Below, one piece after another: positions 5,338 through 41,549 of a stretch of 64,000 bases of DNA. Origin of the DNA: an uncultured Gemmatimonadales bacterium (GTDB lineage Bacteria > Gemmatimonadota > Gemmatimonadetes > Gemmatimonadales > GWC2-71-9); assembly GCA_963846945.1 (NCBI GenBank), contig CAWJXX010000009.1, positions 6,492 to 70,491 on the forward strand. The letters run 5' to 3'. Below the pieces are notes generated by a model, which made no database searches, was not told the DNA's origin, and saw only the letters and a list, made by a program, of their open reading frames with translations. Each line of letters begins with the position of its first letter. Position 1 is the first letter of the stretch. Both the position numbers and the translations under genes were made by a program.

Positions 5338-6966
5338 ATGCTCTTCAATTCATACGAATTCATCTTCCTGTTCCTGCCCGTCACAATGGGGGTGTTCTAC
5401 CTCATTGGCAGTCGTTCGCGCACGTGGGCGCTCCGCTGGCTCATTGTCGCGTCAATCTTCTTTTATGCCTGGTGGCGGCCGCTCAACCTTCTGATCATCG
5501 CGCCGTCCATCCTGATCAACTTTGTCCTCGCCAGAGCGATACAGCGCTACCACGTCAGGGAGCAGCACACGGCTGCGCGAGCAGCTCTCGTGCTCGGCAT
5601 CGTGTTCAACGTCACGTTCCTTGGCTACTTCAAGTACGCCAACTTTGGCGCCACCATTGCTCACGACCTGCTGGGCACAGACCTGGTGCTTACCCGAATC
5701 ATCCTGCCGCTCGGGATCTCGTTCATCACCTTTCAGAAGATCGCGTTCCTCATCGACGTTCATTCCGGTCGCATTTCATCGTTTACATTGCACGACTACT
5801 GCCTGTTCGTGCTGTTCTTTCCCCAGCTCATCGCCGGCCCGATTGTTCACTATCGGGAGATGATGCCGCAATTCCAGCGAGCAACCTGTGTCTTCGACGC
5901 CGAAAACGCGTCTGTCGGACTCACACTGTTTGTTTTTGGCCTCTTCAAGAAGGTGGTTCTTGCGGACAGCATTTCACCCTATGTCGGCACGTTGTTCGGG
6001 AATGCGGCGCTTGGCAGCTCGATATCGTTCCTGCCAGCATGGATGGCTGCGATAGGCTTCACCTTTCAGATCTACTTCGACTTCTCCGGCTACACCGACA
6101 TGGCCCTCGGACTGGGGCGGTTTTGTGGCGTGCGCTTCCCGCCCAACTTCTTTTCGCCGCTGCGCGCAACGAGTATCATCGACTTCTGGCTCCGCTGGCA
6201 CATGACCCTGACTCGCTTCCTTACCGCGTACATCTACAACCCACTGGCGCTGGCACTGACTCGGCGGCGGGCGGCGCGGGGTCTGCCGGTCGTTGCCGGC
6301 CGGAATACGACGATCGGGGCCTTCGTCGAGTTGCTGATGTTCTCGACCATCGTGACGATGCTGATCTCGGGCATCTGGCACGGCGCCGGGTATCTCTTCC
6401 TCTTGTGGGGCCTGCTGCATGGCATCTACTTGACGATAAACCATGGTTGGCGCCTGCTGCGTCCGCGGTACTGGCGCGACAGCAGTTCGTATGACCGGAT
6501 CATGAAACCGGTGGGCTTTGTGCTGACGTTCGTCGCAGTGGCAGCCGCCATGGTGCTGTTTCGCTCGACGAACACGACTGGCGTGGTTCGGCTGTTTGCC
6601 GGGATGGCCGGCCTCAGCGGGATCGCGCTGCCTGTTTCGCTTTTCAGTCACTTGGGCCCGCTGGCAGCACCGTTGCAGGCGATGGGGGTCAAATCGGGAC
6701 TGGATGGAGGAATCGAGTTCAATGCGATGGCGTCGTGGACCATACTGCTGGCATTTGTAGCGCTCGCTTGTCCAAATACGCTTCAGTTGCTCTCTCGTTA
6801 CGAACCGGCCCTTGGAATCAAGTCCACGGCGGGGGCGGCCAGTGTGGTGGCCAGGCGCGTTCAATGGGCGCCTTCACTCGGATGGGCGGCCGTGGTCTCG
6901 GCGCTTGCCTTTGTCGGCGTGTCGCACCTTGGCGGCCTGAGCGAGTTCCTCTACTGGCAGTTCTAG
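5338..6966 (+). CDS. MBOAT family membrane O-acyltransferase (AlgI/DltB-like)
   Basis: Intact 542-aa polytopic ORF starting MLFNSYEFIFLFLPV. It carries the conserved FQIYFDFSGYTDMA and the invariant-His motif SGIWHGAGY. Confidence 0.9.
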   Translation: MLFNSYEFIFLFLPVTMGVFYLIGSRSRTWALRWLIVASIFFYAWWRPLNLLIIAPSILINFVLARAIQRYHVREQHTAARAALVLGIVFNVTFLGYFKYANFGATIAHDLLGTDLVLTRIILPLGISFITFQKIAFLIDVHSGRISSFTLHDYCLFVLFFPQLIAGPIVHYREMMPQFQRATCVFDAENASVGLTLFVFGLFKKVVLADSISPYVGTLFGNAALGSSISFLPAWMAAIGFTFQIYFDFSGYTDMALGLGRFCGVRFPPNFFSPLRATSIIDFWLRWHMTLTRFLTAYIYNPLALALTRRRAARGLPVVAGRNTTIGAFVELLMFSTIVTMLISGIWHGAGYLFLLWGLLHGIYLTINHGWRLLRPRYWRDSSSYDRIMKPVGFVLTFVAVAAAMVLFRSTNTTGVVRLFAGMAGLSGIALPVSLFSHLGPLAAPLQAMGVKSGLDGGIEFNAMASWTILLAFVALACPNTLQLLSRYEPALGIKSTAGAASVVARRVQWAPSLGWAAVVSALAFVGVSHLGGLSEFLYWQF

Positions 6967-7005: not shown

Positions 7006-9045
7006 CTATGGCTTCGGTACCTCAAAAACAAACAGCATTGAGCCGGCCACAATCGCTACTCGCGCGTGCGTCTCGGTTCGGAAGACAATGGGAGCGCCCT
7101 TTATTGGGCCGCCCAAGCCCACCTGCCAGACTCGGCTGCCAGTCTTAGCATCCAATGCGAAAAACGTGCGACCTTGGCCACCAAGAACAACCTGATCGGA
7201 AATGGCCAACAGGCCGCCCGTCGTGACGTCATGTTGCTCGGGCGCGGGCGCCGTCCACCGGATTGCGCCGGAGCTGCAGGTCGAGCGCCACAATCGAAAC
7301 AAGTGTCTCCTCACCCGGGAGGCCCGACGGCGCGTCCGCCAAGCCACATCCCATCGAATAGTTGGGACTTACGGTCCCTGAAGAAGACACTGCCGCCTTC
7401 CTGCCTGGCGACAAACATGAGCCCGAGTCTCTCGCTGTAACTCGGCGACCACCAGTTGGTTGCACCGCCAACGCCAGGGTAGACCGTTGAGCCGTCTACT
7501 GACGGAAGCACTGAAGCTCGAACTGCTGGTCTTCCCTGCTTGTCGAATCCATCGTTCCACGTCTGGCGAGCGAAGGCAGTCGCGCGCAGGAATTCACCCG
7601 TCTCTCGATCCAGGACGTAGAAGAACGCGTTGCGATTCGCCCAGACAAGCAGTGGTCGCATCCGGCCCTTCCACTCCGCGTCCACAAGCACCGGGGTCTG
7701 CGCGGAGTCCCAGTCGTGCGAATCACCGGGCGTGAATTGATAGCTCCAAACGAGAGCGCCTCTTCGCACATCCAGGGCAATCACTGAATTTGTGTGCAGG
7801 TTGTCACCCACGCGCATATCGGGCGCAAAGGGTGGCGACGGGTTGCCAACACCCCAGAAGATGAGATGCCGCTGGGGATCATATGCGCCGGGAACCCATG
7901 TAGACCCGCCACTCGGAACCGCTGTGTCCGCCCACGAATCGCGGCCAGCTTCTCCCTGGGCCGGGACCGTGTAGTACCGCCACAATCGCGCGCCCGTATC
8001 CGGATCGTAGGCGTCAAGGAAACCTCGCGCCGCAAACTCGCCCCCTGCGACGCCAACTAGCACGCGACTGTCGGCGACAACCGGCGCGCCGGTTATGCTG
8101 AATCCCTCGCCCGGACTCCCGACCTTGACGTCCCACAGGAGCTTTCCGCTGGCAAGATCAAGCGACAGCAGATGTGCGTCGAGTGTTCCCCAAAACACCG
8201 AGGTTCCGAGTACCGCGACGCCGCGGTTTGCCCGGTTGCAGCAGAGCTTGATTTCTCCAGGCAGGTCCCGGTGGAACCGCCAGACGACCGCCCCACTTGA
8301 CTGATCCAGTGCGATAACCTCGAGGGCGCTGGTCACGAGAATCAACCCACGCACAGCGATCGGAGTCGATTGTGAGACGGCGGGGTCGGCGGGAAGCTGC
8401 GCGGCCCAGGCAAAGCGAATGGTGGGAGCGCTCGCAGCTGTCAACTCAGCGACATCCTTGTAGCGGCGACCGGACCAGCCACCGCTATACGATAGCCATT
8501 CGGAATCCGTACGCTCTGCCGTTGCCAGTTCGCCAGGCGATACCGGAGCAATACCTGCAACAGCTCCGTGGGCCCCGTCTTCGGGGTCGCCCGATCGCAG
8601 CGACCGGATGCGAGCGATGACACGCCAGGTGTCCTTGAAGGACAAACCACTGGCCTGCATGGCGGTGCCCGAAAGACCGTCCCGAAGCACCCGATACATC
8701 GCCCCAGTCGCTGCCGGCGTGAACCCAGGGTCCCTGGACCAGGGAAGGCGCCTTGCCTCCCTCTCCGCGGAGCCCGTGACATTGGGCACAATGTGACGTG
8801 AAGAGACTGGCGCCGGTATCGGAGTCGGCTAAACCGAAAGGGACGCTAAGCGAGGCGAATGCATTGCGGGACCAGTCCAGGGTCACCAAGTCGAAGCCCG
8901 AGTGCGGCCACAACAGGTGTGGCAAGTCCCGGGGCGTCACGGCGGGTAGCTTGCCCGAGAGCTGGAGCATTGCGATGTGGAGCCGTAGCCGGGTCTTCGG
9001 ATGCGCAAGGGTGACCATGGCGGACACCAAGGCCACGCCAAACAC
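7006..9045 (-). CDS. c-type cytochrome domain fused to PQQ-like/BamB-like beta-propeller protein (two frame changes as assembled)
   Basis: Three collinear minus-strand ORFs. ORF 8485-9045 has an N-terminal hydrophobic segment and the haem motif CAQCH. ORF 7311-8789 has the cytochrome tail YRVLRDGLSGTAM, then W/G-rich propeller blades. ORF 7006-7347 has the last blades. Confidence 0.6.
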
Positions 9046-20033: not shown

Positions 20034-21384
20034 ACAACCTCCTGATAAGAGCCCCGTCAGGCCGCCGCGCTCAGAGTGTTCCTGCAGCCAGGTTTCGCCG
20101 CGAAAGTGCGCGTACTGATCGGCTCGCAATCGATCCGCCAGCCGATCAGGCGGAAGCTGCACATCCTCGTACAGTCAGGACCTGATCCCTTGGCACGTCA
20201 CGAAGCAGCCGGCACCCTTCCACAAGCCCCTCAGGCAGGTAGCGTCGCTGGCTCATTTCGTCGGCGCTGACGGCCTCCCCATATGTCATGAACATGCCAA
20301 AATCATCCAGCACATCACCGCGCTTGAGGTCACGTTTTGCCACCGCGCAGACTTCGACGACCGGTCCAGCCAAGCGGCTTGGCGACCGAATCACGAAACA
20401 GGACGGCACGTGCGATCGCGCTCGGTACTTCGAAGTGGACAAGGTGATATGGGACAAAGAAGGAGTACAGGGGGCCGTCGCCCATCTTGTAGAGATTGAG
20501 ATAGTGCTGCTGCTTCGGATCGGGATGCTCAGCCAGGCAATAAACCTTGGTGAGCGGAGTGCCTACCACGTAGTCGACGACTCCGCCCAGCGAACGCACC
20601 TGATCGATGTCATAGAGTTGCCCGATCCTCAGACGTCGTCGCGATATTCCCGTCCGCGCGACATGCCTCGCGCGAGCGTCGTGAAGCCGGTCGCATTCGC
20701 TACCACCGCCTGCTCGAAGCTGATCTTGGAACCGTCGGCAAAGCTCGTCACCATTGCAGGATTCTGGCCCCACTTCTCCGCGAACGCCTTCTGCGTCTCC
20801 GGCGTGCGATAGGGATCCTGCAATCCCTTGATATTGCCCATGACACGTGGAGTCAGGCCCAGCCCCTTCACCCAGCGGTACAGGTTCATCTGGACACCAG
20901 GCTCATCGCCATCGCAGGCTGACAGGATGACGCCCGCCTTTGCAGCATGGACCTGCAGGATTGGTCCGATCGTGGCATCAACCTCGGCATTCAAGAGCAC
21001 GACATCCTTTCCGTGCTCGAACGCCTCCATCAGCACACGCGCTCCAAATTCCACCGACCCAGTTGCATCCACAAGAACGTCAACATAATCGGACCTGGCC
21101 AGCAGGAATGCGTCCTCCGTCACGACCGGCCGACCAGCCTGGATCGCGGCGTCGCAGCGCGCCTGGGTCTCAGCGACTTCGGCCGTGTCGGCGCCGGCGT
21201 ACCGGAAGACCGCCAGCGCGCGCTCCGCGCGACGGTTGAATATGGCGACCACACGCATCCCGGGCACACTATGCGCGATCATGTTCGTGAGTCCCTGCGC
21301 CATGAAACCGGCGCCGAGAATACCCACCCGGATGGGAAGGCCTTGCTCCTCTCGCGCTCGGAGGGCGTTATCGACGAGGATCAT
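20034..21384 (-). CDS. Rossmann-fold oxidoreductase with C-terminal SAF-like domain (homoserine-dehydrogenase-like; frame changes as assembled)
   Basis: ATG 21384 overlaps the rfbC stop (ATGA). IRVGILGAGFMAQGLTNM lies in ORF 20629-21489. Collinear fragments are 20330-20773 and 20146-20457 (AKRDLKRGDVLDDFG). The 3' end is approximate. Confidence 0.6.
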
Positions 21385-21956
21385 GAGTTGACCGCCGCGG
21401 TCATTCGCTTTCGAACAGCAGGCTCGATACTCGAAAGTGGCTGGAACGCCAGATCCTTGTCGGAAATGATGGTGACTGGTCGAGGCCACGCAAGCGCCAA
21501 TCGCAAATCATTGTACAAGAGCCCACCCTCCGACTCGGGCGTGTAGTACTCTCCCACCTGATAGCTCGTCTCGGTGTCGTCGACGAGCGTCTGGTACCCA
21601 TGAGCAAATCGTTCAGGAACGTAGAGGGCCCGGAAGTTGTCCTCGGAGAGCTCGACCGACACACTCTGCAGATAAGTCACGCTTTCCGGGCGCAGGTCGA
21701 CGATGATGTCTACGATCGCGCCACGCGTGCACCGCACAAGCTTGGTTTCCGCGAACGGGGGATACTGGTAGTGCATCCCGCGCACCGTGCCAGCTGTTCT
21801 GCTGAGCGCAACGTTGCTCTGGGCGATGACGGTCTTGAGCCCATATTTGGCGAATTCGTGCTGACAAAAGGTGCGCGCAAAGAAGCCGCGCGAATCTTCC
21901 CGCTTCTCCATGTCAATGATGAAGGCGCCCTTGAGTCGCGTCTCCGTAAAAAGCAT
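21381..21956 (-). CDS. rfbC: NDP-4-dehydro-6-deoxyhexose 3,5-epimerase (RmlC family)
   Basis: Lies inside ORF 21381-22103, starting at MLFTETRLKGAFII. The RmlC cupin motifs are DSRGFFARTF, VRGMHYQ, KLVRCTRGAIVDIIVDLR and FAHGYQTL. Confidence 0.85.
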   Translation of the reverse strand: MLFTETRLKGAFIIDMEKREDSRGFFARTFCQHEFAKYGLKTVIAQSNVALSRTAGTVRGMHYQYPPFAETKLVRCTRGAIVDIIVDLRPESVTYLQSVSVELSEDNFRALYVPERFAHGYQTLVDDTETSYQVGEYYTPESEGGLLYNDLRLALAWPRPVTIISDKDLAFQPLSSIEPAVRKRMTAAVNS

Positions 21957-25767: not shown

Positions 25768-26961
25768 TTACCGCATCGCTTCGGAGAGCGGCCCGGAGGG
25801 TCGTTGGGACGTCCCCCTGTTGGGATCTCCGACCTTCCTTCCGGAATTCGGCTGTGTCACCACGTTGATCAACGCATTGCACGCTGCACGCCCCACCCTA
25901 TCCGCCCCCTCAGCAGTGAAGTGTGAGAAATCAGCAAAATACGGAGCTCGCGCGACTGGAAACTCTGCGGGAAGATCAACAACGATCGCGCCCGAATCTG
26001 AACCGACACGAAGGGTCGTTTCACGTGCCAAGCTATCAAAGGCCACAATCATTTCCCCGGTTGCGCGAGGATAAAACTTTTCCCATGCGGTGAGCATGTG
26101 TGCGTCACGAGGCAGGTTCGGCGAGAAGCGATTGACGTGCACCATAAGAACGGGCGTCATCCCCGAGGATCGTGCGGTCCCGATGAACTCACGCAGATCG
26201 TGGTCCAGTGCCTCCAATCTGTCTTTCGGTAACTCAACGAAGCGCCAGTCGCTGCCATGCGCCTTCAGGGACTGCTCGATTTCGCGCCTCCGCAGCCAGG
26301 TTGCCAAGAACGGCGGGATCATGGCCTTGAGCTCGTCATGGATTCGTTCCACACCGCGCGGCTGGAGCCAGGACCACTCGCTCACCGTTGTGCGCGAAAA
26401 GGAACTGTCGGGTTTGGCGGCTCTTGGCCGCTCTTCCTCAAGATATTGAGGCGGACTCGGATACAGGAGCGCGATGCTCGGACCGAACCGGCGCAGGCGA
26501 AGTGCGAGATCTTGGAGGCCCGTAGGAATCGTGAAACCGGGAAGGCCCGCATTCAGAACTTGCACCCGCTTCGTGGCGGAAGCGCTGACGTGCTGAAGGC
26601 GGTTGTTCAAACAGGCTTCCAGTCGACGTGGGAATTCCATGCCCTCGGGCTCATAGAGCCCGAAAGTCTCCGAAGCGCCAAGCGTCACTAGCCGTGTCGT
26701 CGACGCGTCGGCGACGGGAGAAACATTGGGTCCTCTCATTCCCAGGTTGTTCAAAACAAACTGGCGAAAGCGCGCCCCGGGTCGTCCGTGCAGACCATCT
26801 GCATCGCGTACAAGCATATCTGCTCGCGAAGAGAAGATCGGGGTTCCAAACCGGATTGCGTCATCGGCGCGAGTCATACCCTCAAATGCTGTCATTCCGC
26901 ACGCGATTGCCGCGAGCGACCACAGTGCGATAGTGGCGGGTCGAACTGGAACCTTGGTCAT
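25768..26961 (-). CDS. SGNH-like hydrolase/esterase with N-terminal membrane anchor
   Basis: Lies in track ORF 25768-27048; the start is likely MTKVPV (26961). It has block I LVTLGASETFG, block III VLNAGLPG and block V FADFSHFT. Confidence 0.6.
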   Translation of the reverse strand: MTKVPVRPATIALWSLAAIACGMTAFEGMTRADDAIRFGTPIFSSRADMLVRDADGLHGRPGARFRQFVLNNLGMRGPNVSPVADASTTRLVTLGASETFGLYEPEGMEFPRRLEACLNNRLQHVSASATKRVQVLNAGLPGFTIPTGLQDLALRLRRFGPSIALLYPSPPQYLEEERPRAAKPDSSFSRTTVSEWSWLQPRGVERIHDELKAMIPPFLATWLRRREIEQSLKAHGSDWRFVELPKDRLEALDHDLREFIGTARSSGMTPVLMVHVNRFSPNLPRDAHMLTAWEKFYPRATGEMIVAFDSLARETTLRVGSDSGAIVVDLPAEFPVARAPYFADFSHFTAEGADRVGRAACNALINVVTQPNSGRKVGDPNRGTSQRPSGPLSEAMR

Positions 26962-27595
26962 GTCCTCATTGGTGCGACTTGAATTTGACACGTTCAGTAG
27001 TGCCCTCCCGGTCCAAAGCCCTGCTGGCTGCGAGGGCAGACTCTCCATGCATCAATCGGTCCGGCCTGCCCCGTGCGTCGCTATTGCGGCACTGCGGGCA
27101 GGTCCAGCGTCCGCCCAACCGAGCAAACCGCTGTCTTCGGACCACGTGGCTCCGTACAAGAATGTTGCATTGATGCAACGATCTGCACCTGATGTGAATC
27201 AACACCCCCGACGGGCCAGCCCGTCGGCGAAAGCCGTGAACCCCCTGGACCATCCACTCGTTCATCCCCGAACCTGCGCCGGGAAGTGCGATTTGGGGGA
27301 CCTCTAGACCATGCAAAGAAGACGGGTGTTCGCCCGACCGAGTTCGAGGCAAAAACGCGCGTGAAGTACTCCGCGAATCGCGGTGCGAAGAGCCGCGCCG
27401 ATGGCTCCATTAGTCTGGCCGCGGTCCGCATTTGTTGGCGAGCATGGGTGAGTCAACTGGCGCGCGAGCCTTGAAGGGGCCATCCCAACTCGGCAGGAGA
27501 ATTGCTTCCCTCAAGCGTGGTGCGAGCGAGCGGCCGAAATCACCAAGCCGGACGCAACCTCCAAGTCGTTCACTGGCAGTTCTTTATCTAAAGAA

Positions 27596-28809
27596 ATGAC
27601 TGGCATTGCTTCTATGGGCATTCGGCGACTCCATGCAGCAGCAACGAAGCGCGATCGGGTCGTCTGCACCATGGGACGTTTGGCCCATGAGTTCATGACA
27701 GTGCTCAGCCTGCTCGGCTTTGTCTCCGCCTCCCTTCTTGGTGTGACCTGGCTCGGATACCCGCTTTTCGCACATGCCATGGCGCGCCTTGCCCGTCGCG
27801 GCTCGACACCCTTCCGACCATTCACCCCGAAGGTATCGGTTCTAGTCGCGACTACAGACGAGCCGCGCCGTCTACGCGAAAATTGCTTCGATCCTCGCCT
27901 CCGACTACCCCAGCGAGCAACTCGAGTAATAGTAGTGGTTTTCGATCTGTCTCACCATCGGCAAATCCCAGCTCTTCGGCATGCAAGTGATCCCCGCGTC
28001 GTGATCGTTCCGGCGATGCGCCCGGCGGTAAGGCGGCTGCCCTCAACGCAGCGACGCGTCGTGCAACCGGTGATGTGCTGGTCTTCACGGACACTCGGCA
28101 GGCGCTAGCGCGCGACGCTATCCCGGAGATCGTGCTCCCACTGCTCGACCCGTCGGTGGGCGCCGTCTCGGGTGCGCTCACCCTTGATTCCGAGTACCGT
28201 ACCTCACCCATCAGCTGGTACTGGAAACTTGAACTTGGTCTTCGTCAGGCAGAGGCACGCTGGCACTCCACCGTGGGGGTTAGCGGATCTCTCTATGCGA
28301 TGCGCAGGGCGCTCTGGGCACCACTACCTGCCGGACTCATTCTCGATGATCTCTACACGCCCATGCGGTTGGTACTCGACGGCCGGCGTGTCATTTTCTG
28401 CCCCGAGGCCGTTGTCCTGGAAACGCGGCAGACCACTCCCAAGCTCGAGTATCAGCGCAAGGTCAGGACGCTCGCCGGCAACGTGCAACTCTGTATGTGG
28501 CTTCCTGCAGTCCTTCGCCCCGATCTCAACCCGATCTGGTTTCAGTTCGTGTTCCACAAGCTCATGCGGCTTGCGACTCCGGTATTGGCGGCGGTAACCG
28601 GCATCTGGCTAGGAGCGCTGGCTTGGAGATACGTGGGAGTCAACCTCACATTTGCGATCTTTGTCCTGACGTTGGCACTGGCTGCGATTGCACTGCTTCC
28701 GGCGCTTCGTGTGCTTCGGCAGGCGTTCGTCTGGGGAGCATATATGATGTCGGCCGCAAGCATCGGCGTGTTACTTGGGGTACGAAGGCAGTGGGACGTT
28801 TGGCGCTGA
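27596..28809 (+). CDS. Membrane glycosyltransferase family 2 (at least 3 frame disruptions, including TAATAG at 27927-27932)
   Basis: ORF 27596-28108 has TM helices, then KVSVLVAT. An alternate frame reads IASILASDYPSEQLE, then TAATAG. ORF 28075-28809 has GDVLVFTDTRQ...SVGAVSG and C-terminal TM helices. Confidence 0.7.
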
Positions 28810-28939
28810 GGCAGCCCCGGATCAGCGGTTCTCCTCGTGCCTCTCCTTCAGCACCGCGCCAGTGAACTTCACTCCGCCGGATGGAATCGCTTCAATAGGT
28901 GCCCCCCTTGCGGGCGGTTTGTTCGTTGGAATGGCTTGC

Positions 28940-29921
28940 GCTCAGCGATAGCCGAGGTAGTTGAAGGAGTTGTAGTACATCTGGTTGAACTGTTTGGTGC
29001 CCTGGGGATAGGCGCCATCAATGCCGGCCTGGAACAGGGTCTCGCCCCGGGTCCGATAGGTGGCATCCCCGGTCTGGCGATAGATCCAGCCCCACTGGGC
29101 GGGGAAGAACATGGTCAGGTCGGGCGAGGGACTCGGGTCGCCGCCGGTGTCCGGATCGCTGCAGGTCCCACTCAGGTACTTGAAGCTCCCCGGACTCCCC
29201 GCCAGCCACTGGGTGGCCCACTGCCAGTCGATGGCCTTCTTCACTGTCTGGACGATCCGCGGATCCGCCTGGAACGAGGTGTAGACCTTGATCAACGCGT
29301 CGTTCTGCAGCGCCAGCATGTAGTTCTTCGTGTAGTTACAGGCGTTCGGCCAGTGGTAGGAGCCGTCCGGCTGCTGCAGCCCGATGGCCGCATTGACGTA
29401 GCCCCGCAGCATCGTGGCCCAGTCCTGCGACGTGTCCTCGAGTTCCCAGGCCAGCAGGGCGCCCAGCGTGAGGCGCTGCATGATCCGCCCCTCGTTGTAC
29501 TGGAACGTCGGATCCGCCATGGAGGCCGGGGGAAAGCCGCCCTGCCGCCCCATGAAGCCCGGCACCGCCACCCGGGAGCGCTCATCCCCCGTCAGCCAGT
29601 AGTGCAGCGCCACCCCCTCCATCTGCGCCTGGTGCGGCGGGGCGCCATAGTTATTCGGCTCCAGATAGTTCGTGCGATAGTCCACCGCGAAGCGGGTCGC
29701 CCGATCCCAGTACTTCGGGTCGCCCGTCCGGACCCAGTACGCATAGTGGTTCATCGCCCGGTCGTAGTAGTCCATCATGGACCAGTCCGCCCCGTACGTC
29801 GCCCACTGCGCATCGGAATACTGGACGAACAAGCTCTCATACTGCGGGAACGCCGAGCCGGCGGCCACAGTGGTCGGCCCCACCAGCTGCGTCGACACCA
29901 GGTAACTGGCCGACGTCGGCA
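28940..29921 (-). repeat. 982-bp block near-identical to 33191-34170 (3' coding ends of paralogs A and B)
   Basis: Direct base-by-base comparison at offset 4251: no difference noticed by eye from 28940 to ~29588. After that there are only a few substitutions and two 1-nt gaps up to 29921. Identity starts 2 nt outside the stop codon. Confidence 0.9.
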
Positions 29922-32703
29922 GCGCGACCGCCGCCGGGATCAGCGGCACCGTACTCTTCGCCCGGTCGCTCGTTCCCGGGGGGTCCCCACGTCCAGCGTC
30001 GCGCTCAACGGCGTGCTCCCCACCGTCGCCTGGAACTGCACCAGGATCGCCCGCCGCGAGCCGTCCGGGTGCTTCCCCTTCAACGCCTCGACGTAGATCG
30101 ACTGCTCCACGCCCCCCAGCAGCACCCGCACCGTTGGCAGGTCCGCGTCCCGCACCTTCCCCGGTGGCAACGGGATCCCGTTGGTCACCAGCACGCTCCC
30201 CGACCCCCCATCCAACCGCCGCACCGTCAGTGCCACCGCGCCCCCACTCGGCGGCGGGGCCCGCCGTCACCGTCACCGCACTCGTGTCCGCCTTCGTCCC
30301 CCCCTGCTGCACCGCGATCACCCGGTACGTCCCCGCCGTCGCCCCCGCCGTATACAGCCCGCCCGTCGAGACCGTCCCGCCCGTCGCACTCCACGTCACA
30401 CTCACGCTCCCCGTCGACCCGTCACTCATCTTCCCCGCCGCACTGAACTGCTGCGTCGCCCCCGCCACGACGCCGCCGTCGCCGGCGTCACATCCACCGC
30501 ACTCAGCGTCGGCGCGGCCGCCGTCACCGCACTCGTGTCCGCCTGTGTGATCCCCTGCTGCACCGCGATCACCCGATAGCGGGTCCCCGCCGTGGTGCCC
30601 GCAGTGTACAGCCCCCCGCTCGTGATCGTGCCGCCCGTCGCACTCCAGGTGACGCTCACGCTCGAGGCACTGCCATCGCTCAACCGGCCCAGGGCCGTGA
30701 ACTGCTGGGTGCGCCCGGCCGCCACCGTGGCCGTCGCACGGAGTCACCTCGACCGCCGTCAATGTCGGCGCCGGCGCCGTGATGGTGATGGCAGCGGTGT
30801 CGGCCTTCGTCCCCCCCTGCTGCGCCGCGATCACCCGGAAGCTGCCCGCCGTCGCTCCCGCCGTGTACAGCCCGCCGCTCGTCATCGTCCCGCCTGTAGC
30901 CGCGTACGTCACCGCGACCGCCGCGGTGCTGCCGTCGCTCATCCGGCCCACCGCCGTGAACTGCTGCGTGGCCCCCGTCTGGAGTGACACAGTCGATGGC
31001 GTCAGCTCGACCGCTGTCAAGGGTCGGCGCCGGCGTTGCAATGGTCACGGCCGCCGTATCTGCCTTCGTGCCGCCCTGCTGCGTCGCGATGACCCGGAAG
31101 GTGCCCGCCGCGTTGCCGGCGGTGTACAGCCCTGCCGTCGTAAACGGCACCGCCCGTCGCGCTCCAACTCACCGACACGCCCGCCGTGCTCGCCGTCACT
31201 CATGCGTCCCACCGCGCTGAACTGCTGCGTGCCGCCGGTCGCGAGGCTCACGGCCGCCGGCGAAACTCGACCGCGGAAGCGTCGGTGCGGGCGCAGAGAC
31301 GGTCACGGCCGCCGTATCAGCCTTCGCCGCCGCCCTGCTGCGTAGCGACCACGCGAAACGTGCCAGCGGTGCTACCGGCCGATATAGGCACCACTGCCGG
31401 TAATCGTGCCGCCGGTGGCCGTCCAGGTCACCGCGACATTTGCGGTGCTCCCATCACTCATCCGGCCGATAGCAGAGAACTGCTGGGCACCACCGGTGAC
31501 CAGGCTGGCATTGGCGGGTGAGACCTCGACCGCTTGAAGCGTGATGGCGGTGGCGGAGTTGCAATCGTGACGGCTGAGGTATCGGCCTTGGTGCCGCCGG
31601 TTTGAACTGCAATCACGCGGAAGGTGCCGCCGGTAGCACCCGCTGTATATGCGCCAGCCGGCGTTACCGTTCCACCGGTGGCGGACCAAGTCACAGCGAC
31701 GCTTGAAGTGCCGCCATCACTCATGCGACCAACGGCCACGAACTGTTGCGCGGCGCCAGGTGCGAGGCTCACGCTCGCAGGACTGATGTCGACCGCCTGA
31801 AGGGTCGGCGCCGGTGCCGTGATTGTGACCGTGGAAGTATCCGCCTTCGTCCCACCCTGCTGCGTCGCAATGACCCGGAATACGCCGGTCGTACTGCCGG
31901 CGGTATATGTCCCGGAGGCGGCAATCGCGCCGCCGGTTGCGCTCCAAGTTACCGGCAGTGCGGAGGTGGAGCCGTCGCTCATGCGTCCGACCGCGGAAAA
32001 CTGCTGTGAAGCACCGGTTAGGAGCATGACGCTCGCGGGCGTCACTTCTACCGCCTGAAGAGTTGGGACGGCCGGACTGATGGTTACCGCGGCAGTGTCG
32101 GCGAATATGCCACCTTGCTGCGCAGCTATCACTCGGAATTGTCCGGTCGTATTCCCGGCGCGGAAGGTTCCGTCGGCCGCAACCGTGCCGCCGCGTGGCG
32201 GTCCAAGTCGCGGAAACGGGGACAGTCGTGCCGTCAGCACGTACGCCGCTGACCGCGAAGGTGAACGCGCCTCCGGGCTGTAGCGTCACAGAGCCTGGTG
32301 CAATGGTGATCGCCGTGAGCGCGGACACGGAACCGGCAACCGTTGCCCGCGAACGGCCCGTGTGACCGGACCGAAGGGCCTTGACGATGTAGTCACCAGG
32401 CGCTGTCGCGCGAAACAGGCCAGTGGTGGTGATAGATGCCCCGGACCCGCCTGAAACGGTCCACTCCACGGGTCCAGATACGTCCGTGCCTTCTATTGTC
32501 TCGTCGGGTGCAACGAAGGCAATGGAATCGCCAGGCGGTACATTGACGGCTTGTGGCGTAATGACGAGAGTATCGAGCGCCGGATCTGGCCCTAGTCCGT
32601 CGACTGGTGCTGGTTCCTGCAGATTGCAGGCGCTGGCAACCGCTGCGATGAGCAGCGAGACGTTGGTGCGGGCGATGGACGATCGGAGCGCGGCGAGTGA
32701 CAT
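28942..32703 (-). CDS. Large surface lipoprotein A: signal peptide/lipobox, ~9 tandem Big_2 (bacterial Ig-like) domains, C-terminal ~480-aa uncharacterised domain (frame changes inside the repeat array)
   Basis: The N-terminus is in ORF 31717-32703 (MSLAALRSSIARTNVSLLIAAVASAC). Big_2 units (VTP...QQFtA.GrMSDGS...V.WSATGG.i...GLYTAG...G.yRVIA) lie in ORFs 31458-32240, 31372-31689, 30680-31150 and 30426-30725. The C-terminal domain is intact in ORF 28942-31041. Confidence 0.75.
30240..32450 (-). repeat. Tandem array of ~258-bp coding units (Big_2 domains) inside gene A
   Basis: Recurrent DNA blocks such as ...ctgctgcaccgcgatcacccggta...gtcgcactccacgtcac...gaactgctgcgt... appear with a ~255-260 bp period. 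About 9 units are present, and neighbouring units are roughly 65-80% identical by eye. Confidence 0.8.
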
Positions 32704-32974
32704 AGATCCTCAGAGCGCGGATAAACCAGCCGAATGGACCGAGCCGCCAAGGGCACGATCTCAAATCGAGATCGGCTCGCTGGCGGCTCGGCTGGCGTGG
32801 CTTCCTGAGAACGGATCCGTAGCCCCGTAGCTCTGCGTCACCGCCTTTCGACGGTTTTGCTCTGAAGCAGCGTGCCTTCACTGCGCCGCGCATGGTGTCG
32901 TGCGGCAGCAGCGAGGACTAAGCTAGCGCTAACGATGTGCTGACACCAACGTTCGTTTTCTAGACACTGTATAG

Positions 32975-33190: not shown

Positions 33191-34170
33191 GCTCAGCGAT
33201 AGCCGAGGTAGTTGAAGGAGTTGTAGTACATCTGGTTGAACTGTTTGGTGCCCTGGGGATAGGCGCCATCAATGCCGGCCTGGAACAGGGTCTCGCCCCG
33301 GGTCCGATAGGTGGCATCCCCGGTCTGGCGATAGATCCAGCCCCACTGGGCGGGGAAGAACATGGTCAGGTCGGGCGAGGGACTCGGGTCGCCGCCGGTG
33401 TCCGGATCGCTGCAGGTCCCACTCAGGTACTTGAAGCTCCCCGGACTCCCCGCCAGCCACTGGGTGGCCCACTGCCAGTCGATGGCCTTCTTCACTGTCT
33501 GGACGATCCGCGGATCCGCCTGGAACGAGGTGTAGACCTTGATCAACGCGTCGTTCTGCAGCGCCAGCATGTAGTTCTTCGTGTAGTTACAGGCGTTCGG
33601 CCAGTGGTAGGAGCCGTCCGGCTGCTGCAGCCCGATGGCCGCATTGACGTAGCCCCGCAGCATCGTGGCCCAGTCCTGCGACGTGTCCTCGAGTTCCCAG
33701 GCCAGCAGGGCGCCCAGCGTGAGGCGCTGCATGATCCGCCCCTCGTTGTACTGGAACGTCGGATCCGCCATGGAGGCCGGGGGAAAGCCGCCCTGCCGCC
33801 CCATGAAGCCCGGCACCGCCACCCGGGAGCGCTCATCCCTCGCAGCCAGTAGTGCAGCGCCACCCCCTCCATCTGCGCCTGGTGCGGCGGGGCGCCATAG
33901 TTATTCGGCTCCAGATAGTTCGTGCGATAGTCCACCGCGAAGCGGGTCGCCGATCCCAGTACTTCGGGTCGCCCATCCGGACCCAGTACGCATAGTGGTT
34001 CATCGCCCGGTCGTAGTAGTCCATCATGGACCAGTCCGCCCCGTACGTCGCCCACTGCGCATCGGAATACTGGACGAACAAGCTCTCATACTGCGGGAAC
34101 GCCGAGCCGGCGGCCACAGTGGTCGGCCCCACCAGCTGCGTCGACACCAGGTAACTGGCCGACGTCGGCA
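33191..34170 (-). repeat. 980-bp block near-identical to 28940-29921
   Basis: Second copy of the direct repeat. Beyond 34170 identity drops to roughly 75-80%, with a further ~95% island (34510-34710 versus 30250-30450). Confidence 0.9.
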
Positions 34171-35773
34171 ACGCCACCGCCGCCGGGATCCCCGGGATCG
34201 CCCCCTTCGCCCGGTCGCTCGTTCCCCGCGGCGTCCCCACGCAGCGTCGCGCTCACGGCGGCTCCCCACCGTCGCCGTAAACTGCACCAGCACCGCGCGC
34301 ACCGACCCGTCCGGGAACCGCCCTTCCAGCGCTTCCACGTAGCTCGGCTGCTCCACCCCGTTCAGGAACACCGCCACGCTCCCCAGGTCCGTCGGCCGCA
34401 CGTCGCCCGGCCGCAACGGGATCCCGTTCGACACCAGCACACTCCCCGACCCACTCCCCACCCGCTGCACCGTCAACGCGATCGAGCCCGCCGCGGCGGC
34501 GGCGGCGCACTCGCCGTCACCGTCACCGCACTCGTGTCCGCCTTCGTCCCGCCCTGCTGCACCGCGATCACCTGGTACGTCCCCGCCGTCGCCCCCGCCG
34601 TGTACAGCCCGCTCGTCGAGACGCTCCCGCCCGTCGCACTCCACGTCACACTCACGCTCCCCGTCGACCCGTCACTCATCTTCCCCGCCGCACTGAACTG
34701 CTGCGTCGCCTTGGCAGCCACGCCCGCGGTGGCCGGCGTAACGACCACCGACGAGAGCGTCGGCGTCGCAGGCGGCGTCGCGGCGGCGTCGTGCCACCAC
34801 CCGTGCCGCCGCTTCCGACTGTGACAATGGAGGTGTCGGTCTGCACGTCACCCTGGCGCGTGGCGATTACCCGGTAGGTCCCGTTCGTGCTCGGCGCCTT
34901 GTACATGCCGCTGCTCGAGATCGTCCCGCCCGTCGCCCGCCAGTTCACCATGACGCCATAGGTCTTGCCGTTGAGCGACTTGCCCACGGCGGTGAACTGC
35001 TTGCTGGCGCTCGGCGCCAGGCTGACCGTCGCTGGCTGCGTTTCGATCCAGAAAGTGGAACGCTTCTGCTGTGCCGTGGGCGTTGTCGGCGCAGGTGCCG
35101 GTGCCGACGTGGATGACGAACCCGACGTCACGGTCACCGTTGCGGTGTCCGCGATCGAGTCGCCGGTCCGCATGAGGATCACCTTGTAGGTGCCCGCCGT
35201 GGCCGGCGCGGTATAGAAGCCGGTCGAGGTGATGGTGCCACCCGTGGCGGACCACACCGGGGTAATGCCATACGACTTGCCGTCGCTGGTCTTGATCGCG
35301 CCCGAGAACTGCGTGGTCTTGCCCGCGGCCAGCGTCACGCTGCCCGGCGTCACCTCGATCCAGAAACTCGTGCTCACCGCGTACGCGATCTGTTGCGACA
35401 CCCCATTCTCAACCGACACCACCGCGCTCCGCGATGTGCCGTTGTTCGCACGCGCACTGACCAGGGCAGGACCGGTAGCTGACGGAGCGTGAAAGAGGCC
35501 GGTCGAGTCAACCGTGCCGGCCGTGGCGGACCAGCTCACCAGCGCTGTTGCCAGGACGCCTGAGGCCGCGCTGTCCGTGGCGACGAACTGAACATCGCTC
35601 CCCGGCTCGACGATCACGGTATCGGGACTGACCAGCAATGTCCCGGACAAAGTCGGCTCATTGTCGCCAGGGCCGGCCAACCCGTCAGTAGTGGTCTTGT
35701 CGGTACTGCACCCGGCAAAAATGAGGGTGCCCACCGCCATGAAGGCGGCAAGCGTGCGATTGAGTTTTTGCAC
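33193..35773 (-). CDS. Surface lipoprotein B, paralog of A: lipobox, 4-5 Big_2-like domains, same C-terminal domain interrupted by two 1-nt gaps relative to A
   Basis: ORF 34676-35773 begins MQKLNRTLAAFMAVGTLIFAGCS. The C-terminal domain is split over ORFs 33833-34240, 33543-34055 and 33193-33822. Single-base gaps near 33950 and 33842 appear when it is aligned with gene A. Confidence 0.75.
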
Positions 35774-36918: not shown

Positions 36919-37467
36919 CTAACCGCCCAGCGCCCGCAGCGCTTCCTCGCCGTAGAACAGCCTGATGTACTTCGCCTGGATCGGCGTGAGCCGGCGCACC
37001 GCCCAGGACAGGTGCACGAAGTGCGGCTCATGCGGTGGCGACAGCGGGAACATGCCGATTTCATGCGGCAGGTGGTTGCCCTTCCGGGTGTTGCAGGCAC
37101 TGCAGGCCGTGACCACGTTGGTCCACTCGTTCCCGCCGCCACGCGAAATCGGGATCAGGTGATCCCGGGTCAGGCACTCCCGCGGCTTGAGCTCAGCGTG
37201 GCTGCGATGGCAGTACTGGCAGCGATAGCTGTCACGAGCGAAGAGGAAGGTGTTGGTGACCTGGCGACGGAAGCGGCGGGGAACGTGGATGAACTTGACG
37301 AGGCGGATGATGACAGGTTTAGGAAGGGAAAGCCTGGCACTTCGAACCAGGTCCAGCGCATCCGCCTCGACGATCTCGGCCTTGCCCTCGATGACGAGCC
37401 GAAGCGCCCGACGCATGGGCACCATCGTCAGCGGTTCGAATGAGGCATTCAAGGCCAGGCAGCGCAA
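36919..37467 (-). CDS. HNH endonuclease family protein
   Basis: Intact 182-aa ORF with the HNH core CQYCH...DHLIPISRGGGNEWTNVVTACSACNTRKGN. The stop lies 6 nt before the methyltransferase start. Confidence 0.85.
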   Translation of the reverse strand: MRCLALNASFEPLTMVPMRRALRLVIEGKAEIVEADALDLVRSARLSLPKPVIIRLVKFIHVPRRFRRQVTNTFLFARDSYRCQYCHRSHAELKPRECLTRDHLIPISRGGGNEWTNVVTACSACNTRKGNHLPHEIGMFPLSPPHEPHFVHLSWAVRRLTPIQAKYIRLFYGEEALRALGG

Positions 37468-37567
37468 CGCTCCAACCCCCTGTAGTTCTACTCATGGATC
37501 GTAACGAGAGCACCCGAAATGGAGCAAGGCCACCGGGTTAAGGCGTTACCGCATTGGAACGGAACGC

Positions 37568-39267: not shown

Positions 39268-41549
39268 CAGCGCTGCGGTGCGTGGCGGCGGGGGGACCCT
39301 GGCCGCCCATGGCGCCGGACCCGCCGGCCGCGCGCCGCCGCCGGCGGCACGGCACCGGCGGAGCGGCAGGGCGGCAGGCGGCGCGCCGCCCGTTGCGGCC
39401 AGTGCCCGGAATGGCCTCGGCGCTGGGAGTCATGCCCGGGCACGCCGAGCATCTGCGAATGCACCGGGCAATACGTCGTCGGCACGGTGCCCGGCGCGAA
39501 ACTCTCCACGTAGCGCAGCGGCCGCGGGCAGAACGGCGTCGCCAGGAAGCCGGTGGTGCTGTCGATCTCGGCGACCTGCAGGTCCTCCGGCCGGGTCCAC
39601 GCGAAGGTGGTGGAGCGCCGGTCGTAGACCTCCTTCATCATCGCCGTCCACGCCGGGGCCGCGAGCCGGCCACCCTGCGCGTTGTTCATGATCTTCTTCG
39701 GCTGGTCGAACCCGATCCACACGCCGGTGACGAGCTCGGGCGTGAAGCCGACGAACCAGACGTCGAAGCCGTCGTTGGTCGTGCCGGTCTTGCCCGCCGC
39801 GGTGAAGTTGATCTGCGCGCCGACGGTGCCCGGCGGCCGTGCCGCGACGCACCACGTCGCGCAGCACGTCGGTCATGAGCCACGCGACCGACGGCTCCAG
39901 CACCTGGATCCGGCGCACCGTGGGCTGCCACAGGATGTTGCCGTCGCGATCCTCCACCCGGAGGATCGCCTGCGGCTCGGCGCGCTGGCCGTCGTTGGCG
40001 AACGCGGTGTAGGCCGAGATGATCTCGAGCGGCACCACGTCGGCGGAACCGATGCTGATCGACGGTACCGGCGCCACGTCGGTGGTGACGCCGAACCGGC
40101 GCGCCTCGTCGATGACGTTCTCGAGCCCGACCTCCATGCCCAGCTTGATCGCCGGGATGTTGCGGCTCTGGTAGAGCGCGCGGCGCAGCGTCATCCGGCC
40201 CTCGAACTTCAGGTCGTAGTTCTGCGGCGTCCACGTGGGCTGGCCCGGGAAATCCATGGACAGTGAGTCGTCCACGATGATCTCGGACAGCGGATGCCCT
40301 GCCTCGAGTGCCGCCGTGTACACGAAGGGCTTGAAGATCGAGCCCGGCTGGCGGCGCGACTGGTCACCCGGTTGAACTTGCTGTCGTCGAAGTCGCGGCC
40401 GCCGACCAGCGCGCGGATGTAGCCGGTCTTGGCCTCGAGGGTGAGCACCAGCCCCTGCAGGTAGGGCGACACCGCCGGGGCGTCGGCGATGTCCTCCCGC
40501 CGCTCGAGGTACTGGGCGTAGGTCTGGTGCGGGAACTTGCCGTAGCGCGGCCCGCCGGCCTCGATCGCCGTGAGCTGGCCCTCGAGCGCCCGCTCGGCGG
40601 CCTGCTGCATGTCGAGGTCGAGCGTGGTGTAGATGCGGAGGCCCTTGCGATAGAGGTCCTCGCCGAAGCGGGCCTGCAGCTGCTGCCGCACGTACTCGAC
40701 GAAGTACTCCGCGGTGCCGCTGAAGTCGGAGCGCGACGACAGCAGCAGCGGATACGCGTTCCAGCGCTCGGTCTCCTGGTCGCCGATCAGCCCCTCGTCA
40801 CGCATGAGGCCGATCACGAGGTTGCGGCGCTGGACGCTGCGCGCGGGGCTCCGCCGCGGGTTGTACGGTCGTCGGCGCCTTGGGGATCGCCGCCAGCGTC
40901 GCCGCCTCGGCGATGTTCAGCTCGCGGGCAGCACTTGCCGAAGTAGCGCTGGCACGCGACCTCGACGCCGTAGGCGCGGTTGCCGAGGTCGATCTGGTTG
41001 AGGTAGAGCTCGAGGATCTTGTCCTTGGGGTAGCGCTTCTCGATATCGAGCGCGACGCGCATCTCCCGCAGCTTCCGGCCGAGGCTGCGGTCCGCCGGTT
41101 GATGTCCTCGGGAAAGAGGTTGCCGGCGAGCTGCATGGTGATGGTGGACGCGCCGGTGACGCCGCCCGCCGAGAACGGCACCCTTGGCTGCGCCGAAGAC
41201 GCGGATCCAGTCGATGCCGTGGTGCTCGTAGAAGCGCTTGTCCTCGGTGGCCAGGAAGGCCTGGACGACCGCCGGCGAGATCTCGCTTGAGCGGAACGAC
41301 GGTGCGGCGCTCGAGGCCGAGGTCGGTGATCAGCCGGCCGTCGGCGGCGTAGACCTTCGAGGCCTGGGCGGGATCGTACTCGCCCAGCGCGTCGAGCGAG
41401 GGGCAGGCGTTGCTCCGGCAGACCGTGAGCCAGGCCGCCAGGAGGATGGCGGCACCGAGGGTCAGGACACCGAGGATTCCGAGGACAACGGCACGGATGA
41501 CGCCCGGCGAGCGCCAGCGGGGCGTTCGGGAAGGAGCAGGGTCAGACAT
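39267..41549 (-). CDS. Class A penicillin-binding protein (transglycosylase/transpeptidase, PBP1A-like; multiple frame changes as assembled)
   Basis: ATG 41549 opens MSDPAPSRTPRW, followed by a TM helix. The GT51 motif RYPKDKILELYLNQIDLGNRAYGVE is in ORF 40814-41062. Transpeptidase fragments lie in ORFs 40209-40817, 39430-40323 and 39267-39722 (MWIGFDQPKKIMNNAQGGRLAAPAW). Confidence 0.85.

Follow-up and report, generated by a model that had tools for sequence, protein, structure and literature searches.

An unclassified six-hairpin toroid family, putatively carbohydrate-active, on lipid-anchored Ig-like stalks in exopolysaccharide loci of Gemmatimonadota

Gemmatimonadota are abundant bacteria of soil and sludge whose exopolysaccharide (EPS) pathways are poorly studied. 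Here we analyse a stretch of 64,000 nucleotides (hereafter the window, to which all positions refer) from an uncultured Gemmatimonadales bacterium (GenBank assembly GCA_963846945.1, contig CAWJXX010000009.1), in which two neighbouring genes on the minus strand, called A and B in what follows, encode lipoproteins that end in the same C-terminal unit of 430 amino acids (aa). This unit pairs a small beta-sandwich with a six-hairpin (alpha/alpha)6 toroid, and we infer that it is a secreted, lipid-anchored carbohydrate-active module of an unclassified family. A first-pass annotation, made by a model that ran no database searches, had singled out the domain of gene A as a candidate glycan-active toroid enzyme. 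The features of the two genes are the following:

28942-32703, minus strand: gene A, a lipoprotein of ~1,250 aa with signal peptide and lipobox, about nine Big_2 repeats, beta-sandwich and (alpha/alpha)6 toroid
32626-32703, minus strand: signal peptide and lipobox of gene A, MSLAALRSSIARTNVSLLIAAVASA followed by C (a by-eye match to the lipobox pattern)
29920-30233, minus strand: N-terminal beta-sandwich of copy A, domain residues 1 to ~105, with a frameshift inside
29979-29985 (near 29982), minus strand: missing-base site, a G-run with GGG in copy A against GGGG in copy B; homologs read through it in frame
28945-29874, minus strand: six-hairpin (alpha/alpha)6 toroid of copy A, domain residues 121-430, in a single frame; stop codon at 28942-28944
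33193-35773, minus strand: gene B, a frame-shifted lipoprotein of ~860 aa with signal peptide, lipobox, about four Ig-like repeats, beta-sandwich and toroid
35708-35773, minus strand: signal peptide and lipobox of gene B, ...MAVGTLIFAG followed by C
34169-34479, minus strand: beta-sandwich of copy B, ~76% identical in nucleotides to copy A, with several indels at 34241-34260
33196-34123, minus strand: toroid of copy B, spread over three frames and found by tblastn as three fragments

Two stalked lipoprotein genes and the repair of their C-terminal domain

Both genes open with a lipobox, which ends in ...LLIAAVASA before the Cys of gene A and in ...GTLIFAG before that of gene B (the pattern was judged by eye), and a similar lipoprotein-like N-terminus is present in most of the homologs that carry the unit alone. 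The stalk that follows is recognised by Pfam as Big_2 (PF02368) in the open reading frames (ORFs) 31461-32285 and 31720-32709, with E=1e-7 and 6e-7. In the DNA of gene A it appears as the tandem repeat families D1-D3, with a period of ~258 nt, and a three-frame translation finds the Big_2 repeats in all three minus-strand frames. Lipobox and Ig-like spacers had both been listed by the first-pass annotation, and both are present. The C-terminus of gene B is the same sandwich-plus-toroid unit as that of gene A, so that a second copy lies at 33193-34490.

The domain of gene A had also been described as intact in ORF 28942-31041, which does not hold. Its residues 1-86, the segment ALTVRR...GTPRE, are read in the frame of ORF 29940-30236, and the rest, TSDRAKST...NYLGYR, in the frame of 28942-31041. 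In tblastn searches, the sandwich segments of copy A at 29976-30233 and 29920-29988 fall in different frames as well, and ORF 28942-31041 (699 aa) is itself a mosaic in which genuine Big_2 stretches alternate with out-of-frame text. When one G is restored to the run near 29982, the two frames join into a continuous domain of 430 aa that homologs cover end to end, and the repaired junction, GTPRGTSDRAKS, aligns without gaps with the intact homolog P0002, which reads GTPRGTPDRAKS. All the motifs that had been quoted for the domain can be found in the repaired version: ALTVRR... (residues 1-25), HYWLTGDE (211-218), NEGRIMQR (247-254), LQQPDGSYHW (286-295), FPAQWGWIY (377-385) and NSFNYLGYR (422-430), the last one directly before the stop codon. 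Compared with typical amino-acid frequencies, the domain is enriched in Trp (3.0%), Tyr (6.5%) and Gln (6.0%), in keeping with the composition first described for it, whereas Asp (6.3%) is only marginally enriched and His (1.2%) is not.

The two copies are 100% identical over 648 nt (28941-29588 and 33192-33839), a tract that comprises the last 215 codons and the stop; either the toroid parts have recently undergone gene conversion or the identity is an artefact of assembly. Copy B has at least five further indels, which include 1-nt deletions relative to copy A at 33842 and 33951 and several changes at 34241-34260. The toroid paralogs of other genomes are diverged, each of them being only ~40-45% identical to the domain of the window. 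Genes split across frames are found in the region 15000-42000, for example at 20333-21507, 27452-28806 and 39433-41541. On the opposite strand, the ORF 28837-30096 (419 aa) was considered as a gene and rejected as an antisense shadow of the toroid gene in DNA of 64% GC; its translation is rich in Arg, Pro and Gly.

A separate family within the six-hairpin fold

The repaired domain matched no family of Pfam-A or NCBIfam at E<=10, nor did phmmer find any match among PDB sequences at E<=10. Profile searches of the PDB with two family alignments returned only Big_2 matches and a non-significant echo of a terpene cyclase (E=0.32). The first-pass annotation, which could not assign the domain to any named family, is borne out on this point, and the searches run returned neither a non-enzymatic fold nor a characterised family; a confident match to such a fold, or to a characterised family of unrelated function, was among the outcomes that it had named as refutations.

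Homologs are numerous. A word-indexed search found 151 homolog clusters, mostly at 100% query coverage and with identities of 37-75% (best E=1e-212), which places the domain well outside chance, and an exhaustive profile search found 2,824 cluster representatives at E<=1e-3, with 799 of them at E<=1e-30. Every homolog that a source names is labelled "hypothetical". In a pattern-limited scan of species-representative genomes, Gemmatimonadota account for 21 of the 22 loci, the remaining one being on a short contig of a Phycisphaerales metagenome-assembled genome. The cultured Roseisolibacter sp. H3M3-2 carries three copies, and more distant members occur in Alphaproteobacteria such as Microvirga sp. 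G4-2. The unit is found alone behind a lipoprotein signal (~480 aa) or behind 1 to ~10 Big_2 repeats (up to ~1,360 aa), while the toroid alone is fused to ricin-type lectin domains (six cases seen), to RTX calcium-binding repeats (two cases, P0186 and P0205), or to Big_13 and CarboxypepD_reg modules. A literature search found no described toroid glycanase in Gemmatimonadota or in exosortase EPS loci.

AlphaFold2, supplied with a 100-sequence alignment, models the full unit with a pLDDT of 97.2 and a pTM of 0.95. In this model a beta-sandwich takes up residues 1 to ~106 (strands from 2 to 106, pLDDT 97-98), and twelve helices follow in residues 130-430. When the toroid alone was modelled on the exact sequence of the window, 12 helices were seen again, at a pLDDT of 95.5. 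DSSP on both models, together with Foldseek, assigns the toroid to the six-hairpin (alpha/alpha)6 fold. Every significant Foldseek neighbour in the PDB is a six-hairpin protein, and most of them are carbohydrate-active enzymes, drawn from the glycoside hydrolase (GH) families GH88, GH76, GH105 and GH127, from the polysaccharide lyase (PL) families PL27, PL8 and PL15, and from the epimerases of the N-acylglucosamine 2-epimerase (AGE) type. A search of a viral library returned only weak matches, to uncharacterised phage proteins. We regard the predicted fold as a firm assignment, and the alpha/alpha-toroid first guessed by eye has thus been confirmed at the level of structural models.

With the toroid alone as query, template-modelling (TM) scores of 0.57-0.67 were reached by GH88, PL27, GH76 and AGE-type proteins. 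The best full-length match is the PL27 L-rhamnose-alpha-1,4-D-glucuronate lyase BACCELL_00875 (5NO8/5NOA; E=1.8e-4, and TM 0.64 to 5NOA for the toroid alone), with which, when the AlphaFold2 topology is set against the published description, the unit shares only its domain order (PMC8377490). PL27 resembles it in being secreted and in acting on a uronate-containing glycan, but identity is 11-14%, and at E<=10 neither phmmer nor hmmsearch returned 5NO8 or 5NOA. The lyase is far longer, at 669 aa, and the two superpose badly over their full length, at a root-mean-square deviation (RMSD) of 20 A. It is, moreover, a catabolic enzyme of gut Bacteroides, whereas the toroid family sits in biosynthetic loci.

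The highest toroid TM scores (0.63-0.67) and the best toroid-only E-value belong to GH88/GH105 (1VD5, with E=1.2e-4 and TM 0.63; 4Q88, with TM 0.67; 3ANK; 3PMM). These unsaturated glucuronyl and rhamnogalacturonyl hydrolases are single six-hairpin barrels whose pocket binds uronate, and they act on lyase products in catabolism. Their identity to the toroid is 8-13%, without any Pfam match (the GH88 model included) or any PDB sequence or profile match, and they have neither N-terminal sandwich nor lipid anchor nor Ig stalk; D158 and D372 of the toroid are no more than candidates for the counterpart of their catalytic Asp, which hydrates the C4=C5 bond of an unsaturated uronate. The GH76 alpha-1,6-mannanases (6SHM, 4D4B, 6RY0; TM 0.55-0.60) are extracytoplasmic endo-glycanases with six-hairpin barrels of similar size (~335 aa). 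Their catalysis depends on two adjacent Asp, as the PDB titles tell (inactive D136/D137, D125N), whereas no conserved motif of the toroid is Asp-Asp: the candidate on the first inner helix is YYDR, where residue 159 is Arg in 98 of 100 sequences. The AGE superfamily (TM 0.57-0.62) has no Pfam match to the toroid, which has no invariant His pair, and its profile match to 8BRY is non-significant (E=0.17, over 38 residues). The domain can be assigned to none of the known families, several of which lie roughly equally far from it; it is therefore a separate, unclassified family within the six-hairpin fold.

Residues Y157, R250, Y353 and K414 are strictly invariant in 74 divergent sequences, and likewise in a set of 100 sequences, to which the following counts refer. 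Position 158 is acidic in 100/100 (Asp in 96, Glu in 4), position 206 in 99/100 (Glu in 85, Asp in 14) and position 372 in 98/100 (Asp in 97). Conservation is also high for N417 (98%), for N374 (95%) and for position 254 (Arg in 92, Lys in 8). No His is invariant, H211 being kept in 95% and H201 in 82%, with Trp instead in 11%. According to the DSSP topology, six long loops (148-158, 195-204, 230-248, 287-303, 343-370 and 408-412) each lead from an odd helix to an even one, and every one of the conserved residues is found either in one of these loops or within the opening turns of an even, inner helix. In six-hairpin enzymes with barrels of the glucoamylase type, it is the outer-to-inner loops that form the catalytic funnel, and the invariant residues and conserved acids of the toroid are predicted to occupy these canonical positions. 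Two cysteines on different funnel loops, C299 and C358, occur together in 76 sequences and are missing together from 24, and neither is ever found without the other. Since the pair co-varies, a Cys299-Cys358 disulfide is suggested, which would fit an exported protein.

HYWLTGDE and ADPRI (323-327) are located at short turns of hairpins, on the side of the barrel away from the funnel, and LQQPDGSYHW is an instance of the generic alpha/alpha-barrel hairpin motif Q-x-x-D-G-(S/G)-aromatic, whose sole echo in the PDB is the terpene cyclase mentioned above. HYWLTGDE and QxxDGS were considered as catalytic motifs and rejected; by the topology and the terpene-cyclase echo these motifs, on which the first-pass annotation had relied, are probably structural hairpin motifs.

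The final residue of the domain, 430 (28945-28947), is Arg in the window and in the closest homologs. All of 100 homologs keep this Arg, and many of them continue for one or a few residues beyond it. Arg430 may cap or plug the bottom of the barrel.

The polysaccharide locus and its paralog arrays

The neighbourhood of the two genes is that of a polysaccharide locus. Three of its genes are the following:

88-1806, plus strand: enzyme of the UDP-glucose/GDP-mannose dehydrogenase family, at the far end of the polysaccharide region, with all three Pfam domains of the family matched
5338-6966, plus strand: MBOAT O-acyltransferase, at the 5' end of the window
27452-28806, plus strand: family-2 glycosyltransferase, convergent with gene A and split in two ORFs; Glyco_tranf_2_3 covers profile positions 71-226 in ORF 27991-28806

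Altogether, the region holds this UDP-sugar dehydrogenase and the MBOAT gene, an ABC-2 permease, a PIG-L deacetylase, a NAD epimerase, RmlC, three family-2 glycosyltransferases (GT2) and a methyltransferase; no exosortase was identified in the scanned parts of the window. The dehydrogenase supplies a uronic-acid precursor and, together with the MBOAT enzyme, suggests an acidic, O-acylated polymer.

The setting proposed from the window recurs elsewhere, since 16 of the 19 homolog loci examined are clusters of the EPS or O-antigen type, in which the toroid has as neighbours GT4 or GT2 glycosyltransferases, Wzx, Wzy_C, AsnB-like proteins, Polysacc_deac_1, Bac_transf or Poly_export. The homolog contexts of Gemmatimonadota that were annotated with Pfam are EPS loci in 5/5 cases (Wzx, Wzy_C, GT4/GT2, AsnB-like, Polysacc_deac_1, formyltransferase). 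One of the five, L003 (1-9000), is a full EPS cluster of the exosortase type, with EpsH, Bac_transf, Poly_export and a Wzz/GNVR kinase, and it additionally contains a sigma-54 activator paired with a histidine kinase. In further loci, where labels were transferred by BLAST, such genes lie beside the toroid in 10 of 13, and an RTX-fused, toroid-only member of another lineage directly follows a GT4 gene, with AsnB, Wzx, GT2 and Acyl_transf_3 nearby.

Immediately upstream of the stand-alone toroid genes there are "Big_2 proteins" of 1,232-1,358 aa that themselves end in the sandwich-plus-toroid unit, so that these loci hold tandem arrays of two or three diverged toroid paralogs (L001/L002/L012, L006, L007, L009, L010, L011 and L015). 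An array typically combines a long-stalk form (~1,230-1,360 aa) with a stalkless one (~470-490 aa), and sometimes a medium form is added; the layout of the window, with two genes of ~1,250 and ~860 aa, is the norm of the family. These arrays with stalks of graded length are the least expected feature of the family and an unusual layout for EPS glycanases, and to our knowledge no glycanase of an EPS locus occurs as tandem paralogs on Ig-like stalks.

Proposed function and competing explanations

We think it rather probable that the unit cleaves glycosidic bonds in the anionic EPS of its own locus. In the mechanism that we propose, the lipobox would anchor the protein in the membrane and the Big_2 stalk, with ~9 repeats in gene A and ~4 in gene B, would keep the barrel off it. 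The small N-terminal beta-sandwich would pack on the six-hairpin barrel, whose funnel would be lined by Tyr157, Asp/Glu158, Arg159, Glu/Asp206, Arg250, Arg/Lys254, Tyr353, Asp372, Lys414 and Asn417, with the putative disulfide stapling two of its loops. The funnel would then bind the acidic polysaccharide of the surrounding locus and cut its glycosidic bonds, so that exported chains would be trimmed or released. AlgL, BcsZ, PslG and ExoK/ExsH play this part in their own pathways. That the substrate would be acidic is suggested by the invariant Arg and Lys of the funnel, by the sugar-nucleotide dehydrogenase of the window and by the recurrent AsnB-like amidotransferases, enzymes thought to amidate the carboxylates of sugars.

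The analysis establishes the fold, the size of the family, its pattern of conservation, the co-variation of the two cysteines, the genomic association and the fusion partners, and from these we infer catalysis, chemistry, substrate and exposure at the surface. Several lines of evidence converge on this proposal. An extracytoplasmic location is supported by the lipoboxes of both genes and of the stand-alone homologs, by the Cys pair and by the RTX versions, which point to type-I secretion. A link to glycans is supported by the six members fused to ricin-type lectins and by the association with EPS loci in two phyla. Exported glycan cutters encoded together with the genes for synthesis and export of their own substrate are a known theme, represented by AlgL (PL5), BcsZ (GH8), PslG (GH39) and ExoK/ExsH (GH16). 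ExsH, which is secreted through RTX repeats, is paralleled by the RTX-fused toroid members P0186 and P0205. All these enzymes belong, however, to sequence families unrelated to the toroid, and mostly to other folds. The toroid is best described as a new family, but one with a known fold and a known functional theme.

A number of observations weigh against cleavage as the function. The family is without any characterised member and without a sequence or profile match to an enzyme in Pfam, NCBIfam or the PDB. Its structural neighbours are distant, with identities of 9-14% and RMSD values of 5-6 A or more, and they include enzymes that do not cleave, such as the AGE-type epimerases and isomerases and LanCL, so that the fold alone is no proof of cleavage. 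The placement of the conserved residues in the funnel rests on secondary-structure topology, and the invariant set of Tyr, Arg, Tyr and Lys, which holds no carboxylate pair, suits a lyase or an epimerase at least equally well. A biosynthetic locus could equally encode an enzyme that modifies the polymer instead of degrading it. Both copies in the window are frame-shifted as assembled, which means that function in this particular genome is not guaranteed, and both read Thr at residue 374 (29121-29123 in copy A; motif D-L-T), a departure at a conserved funnel position where the family has D-L-N.

As for the chemistry, the three conserved carboxylates suit hydrolysis, while beta-elimination would agree with the invariant Tyr, Arg, Tyr and Lys and with a domain order like that of PL27. 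We tentatively place a hydrolase slightly ahead of a lyase, with acid/base hydrolysis through the carboxylates at 158, 206 and 372. A metal-independent polysaccharide lyase is a possible alternative, in which a Tyr (157 or 353) would take H-5 of a uronate, Arg250 and Lys414 would neutralise its carboxylate, and the 4-O-glycosidic bond would be broken by beta-elimination. The strictly invariant residues would suit such a reaction, PL27 is the top full-length Foldseek match, and the dehydrogenase of the window and the AsnB-like genes of the homolog loci fit a uronate-containing substrate. However, the toroid lyases known to us pair their Tyr with an invariant His, and no His of the family is strictly conserved, H201 being exchanged for Trp in part of the sequences. 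Three conserved carboxylates in the funnel would be unusual beside a bound uronate, no sequence similarity to any PL of the PDB was found, and GH88 and GH76 are structurally as close as PL27.

An unlikely explanation of another kind is that the two genes are dead in this genome, their frameshifts being real and the genes decaying pseudogenes of a family that functions elsewhere. Gene A as assembled changes frame about ten times from 32703 to 28942, at least five indels are counted in the C-terminal unit of gene B, and neither gene has a single ORF that spans from the signal peptide to the toroid. However, genes of the window that are unrelated to these two are broken up too: the DRL_cat profile is matched at positions 1-86 by one ORF and at 105-164 by a second, a class-A penicillin-binding protein (Transgly plus Transpeptidase) and a GT2 gene are divided between frames, and a NAD epimerase is cut short. 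A frame plot of GC content at third codon positions (GC3) switches frame along the whole window, the indels of genes A and B fall in short G/C runs, and the coding stretches that separate them are undamaged, free of in-frame stops and 75% identical to the closest homolog. Because unrelated genes are split likewise, GC3 switches and the indels lie in G/C runs, the frameshifts of both copies are most likely assembly errors rather than signs of gene decay, and they suggest an indel-prone, probably long-read, assembly.

Two further alternatives keep the toroid bound to the polymer without cutting it, and both are improbable. According to the first, it would be an enzyme that modifies the finished polymer during EPS maturation, such as a uronate C5-epimerase or another isomerase. 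The gene is conserved in biosynthetic loci, often in two or three copies, and some of the closest folds are those of AGE-type epimerases and isomerases. Abstraction of the C5 proton is, besides, common to epimerases such as AlgG/AlgE and to lyases, and the heparosan C5-epimerase resembles heparinase II. Against this, AGE-family enzymes act on free sugars in the cytoplasm by means of a His pair, and the toroid family has no such invariant pair; the AGE model, like all other Pfam models, remained unmatched, and forms fused to ricin-type lectins or secreted through RTX repeats, which exist in the family, are typical of depolymerases. According to the second, for which the chances seem equally slim, the toroid would have no catalytic role and would serve as a matrix anchor or adhesin: it would bind EPS, and the Ig-like stalk and lipid anchor beneath it would hold the polymer to the cell. 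The lipid anchor, the long Big_2 stalk and the terminal globular domain make up an adhesin-like build, no activity has been demonstrated for any member, and some of the loci are exosortase-type clusters, which have been linked with floc formation (PMC9850573). On the other hand, the dense set of invariant ionisable residues in the funnel (Tyr, Asp, Arg, Lys) exceeds the usual needs of binding, the lectin modules of some members would be redundant in a protein that only binds, and the freely secreted RTX versions have no anchor at all.

A toroid enzyme acting off glycans, either a LanC-like thioether cyclase or a terpenoid cyclase or prenyltransferase-like protein, is very improbable: LanCL1 and LanCL2 do appear among the Foldseek matches (TM 0.44-0.52; ~0.51 for LanCL1) and a terpene cyclase gave the only PDB profile echo, but the LanC-type Cys/Cys/His zinc site is missing from a family with just two cysteines, which co-vary and are absent from 24% of members, the terpene-cyclase signal is confined to the generic QxxDG(S/G)W hairpin motif, and the protein is extracytoplasmic, with a context and fusion partners related to glycans.

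Returning to a glycan-cleaving enzyme, confirmation of the activity would make this a new family of GH or PL enzymes, known in its fold but with a catalytic constellation of its own, and would add a missing processing step to the EPS pathways of Gemmatimonadota. A possible, rather doubtful extension is that the ~2,800 clusters represent a new carbohydrate-active enzyme family that, so far unrecognised, is a regular extracytoplasmic part of EPS pathways of the Wzy/exosortase type. Gemmatimonadota and some Proteobacteria would deploy it in tandem, as two or three diverged paralogs on Ig-like stalks of graded length (none, ~4, and ~9-10 repeats). If this were so, stalk length would set the distance from the membrane at which the polymer is processed, or the paralogs would differ in specificity. 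The family is large and wholly unannotated, so that characterising one member biochemically would give an annotation to thousands of "hypothetical proteins"; in Roseisolibacter sp. H3M3-2, a cultured carrier, the hypothesis is directly testable.

Three other features of the window deserve mention:

7311-8789, minus strand: PQQ-dependent dehydrogenase, at the 5' end of the window
25768-27048, minus strand: ORF of 426 aa between two GT2 genes, without a Pfam match
36922-37491, minus strand: HNH endonuclease ORF (HNH_5, E=5e-14), just past the methyltransferase that flanks gene B

The HNH ORF may lie at an edge of the locus that is mobile or prone to recombination. The ORF at 25768-27048, with the motifs LVTLGASETFG and NAGLPGFT, reads by eye like an esterase or acyltransferase of the SGNH/GDSL type.

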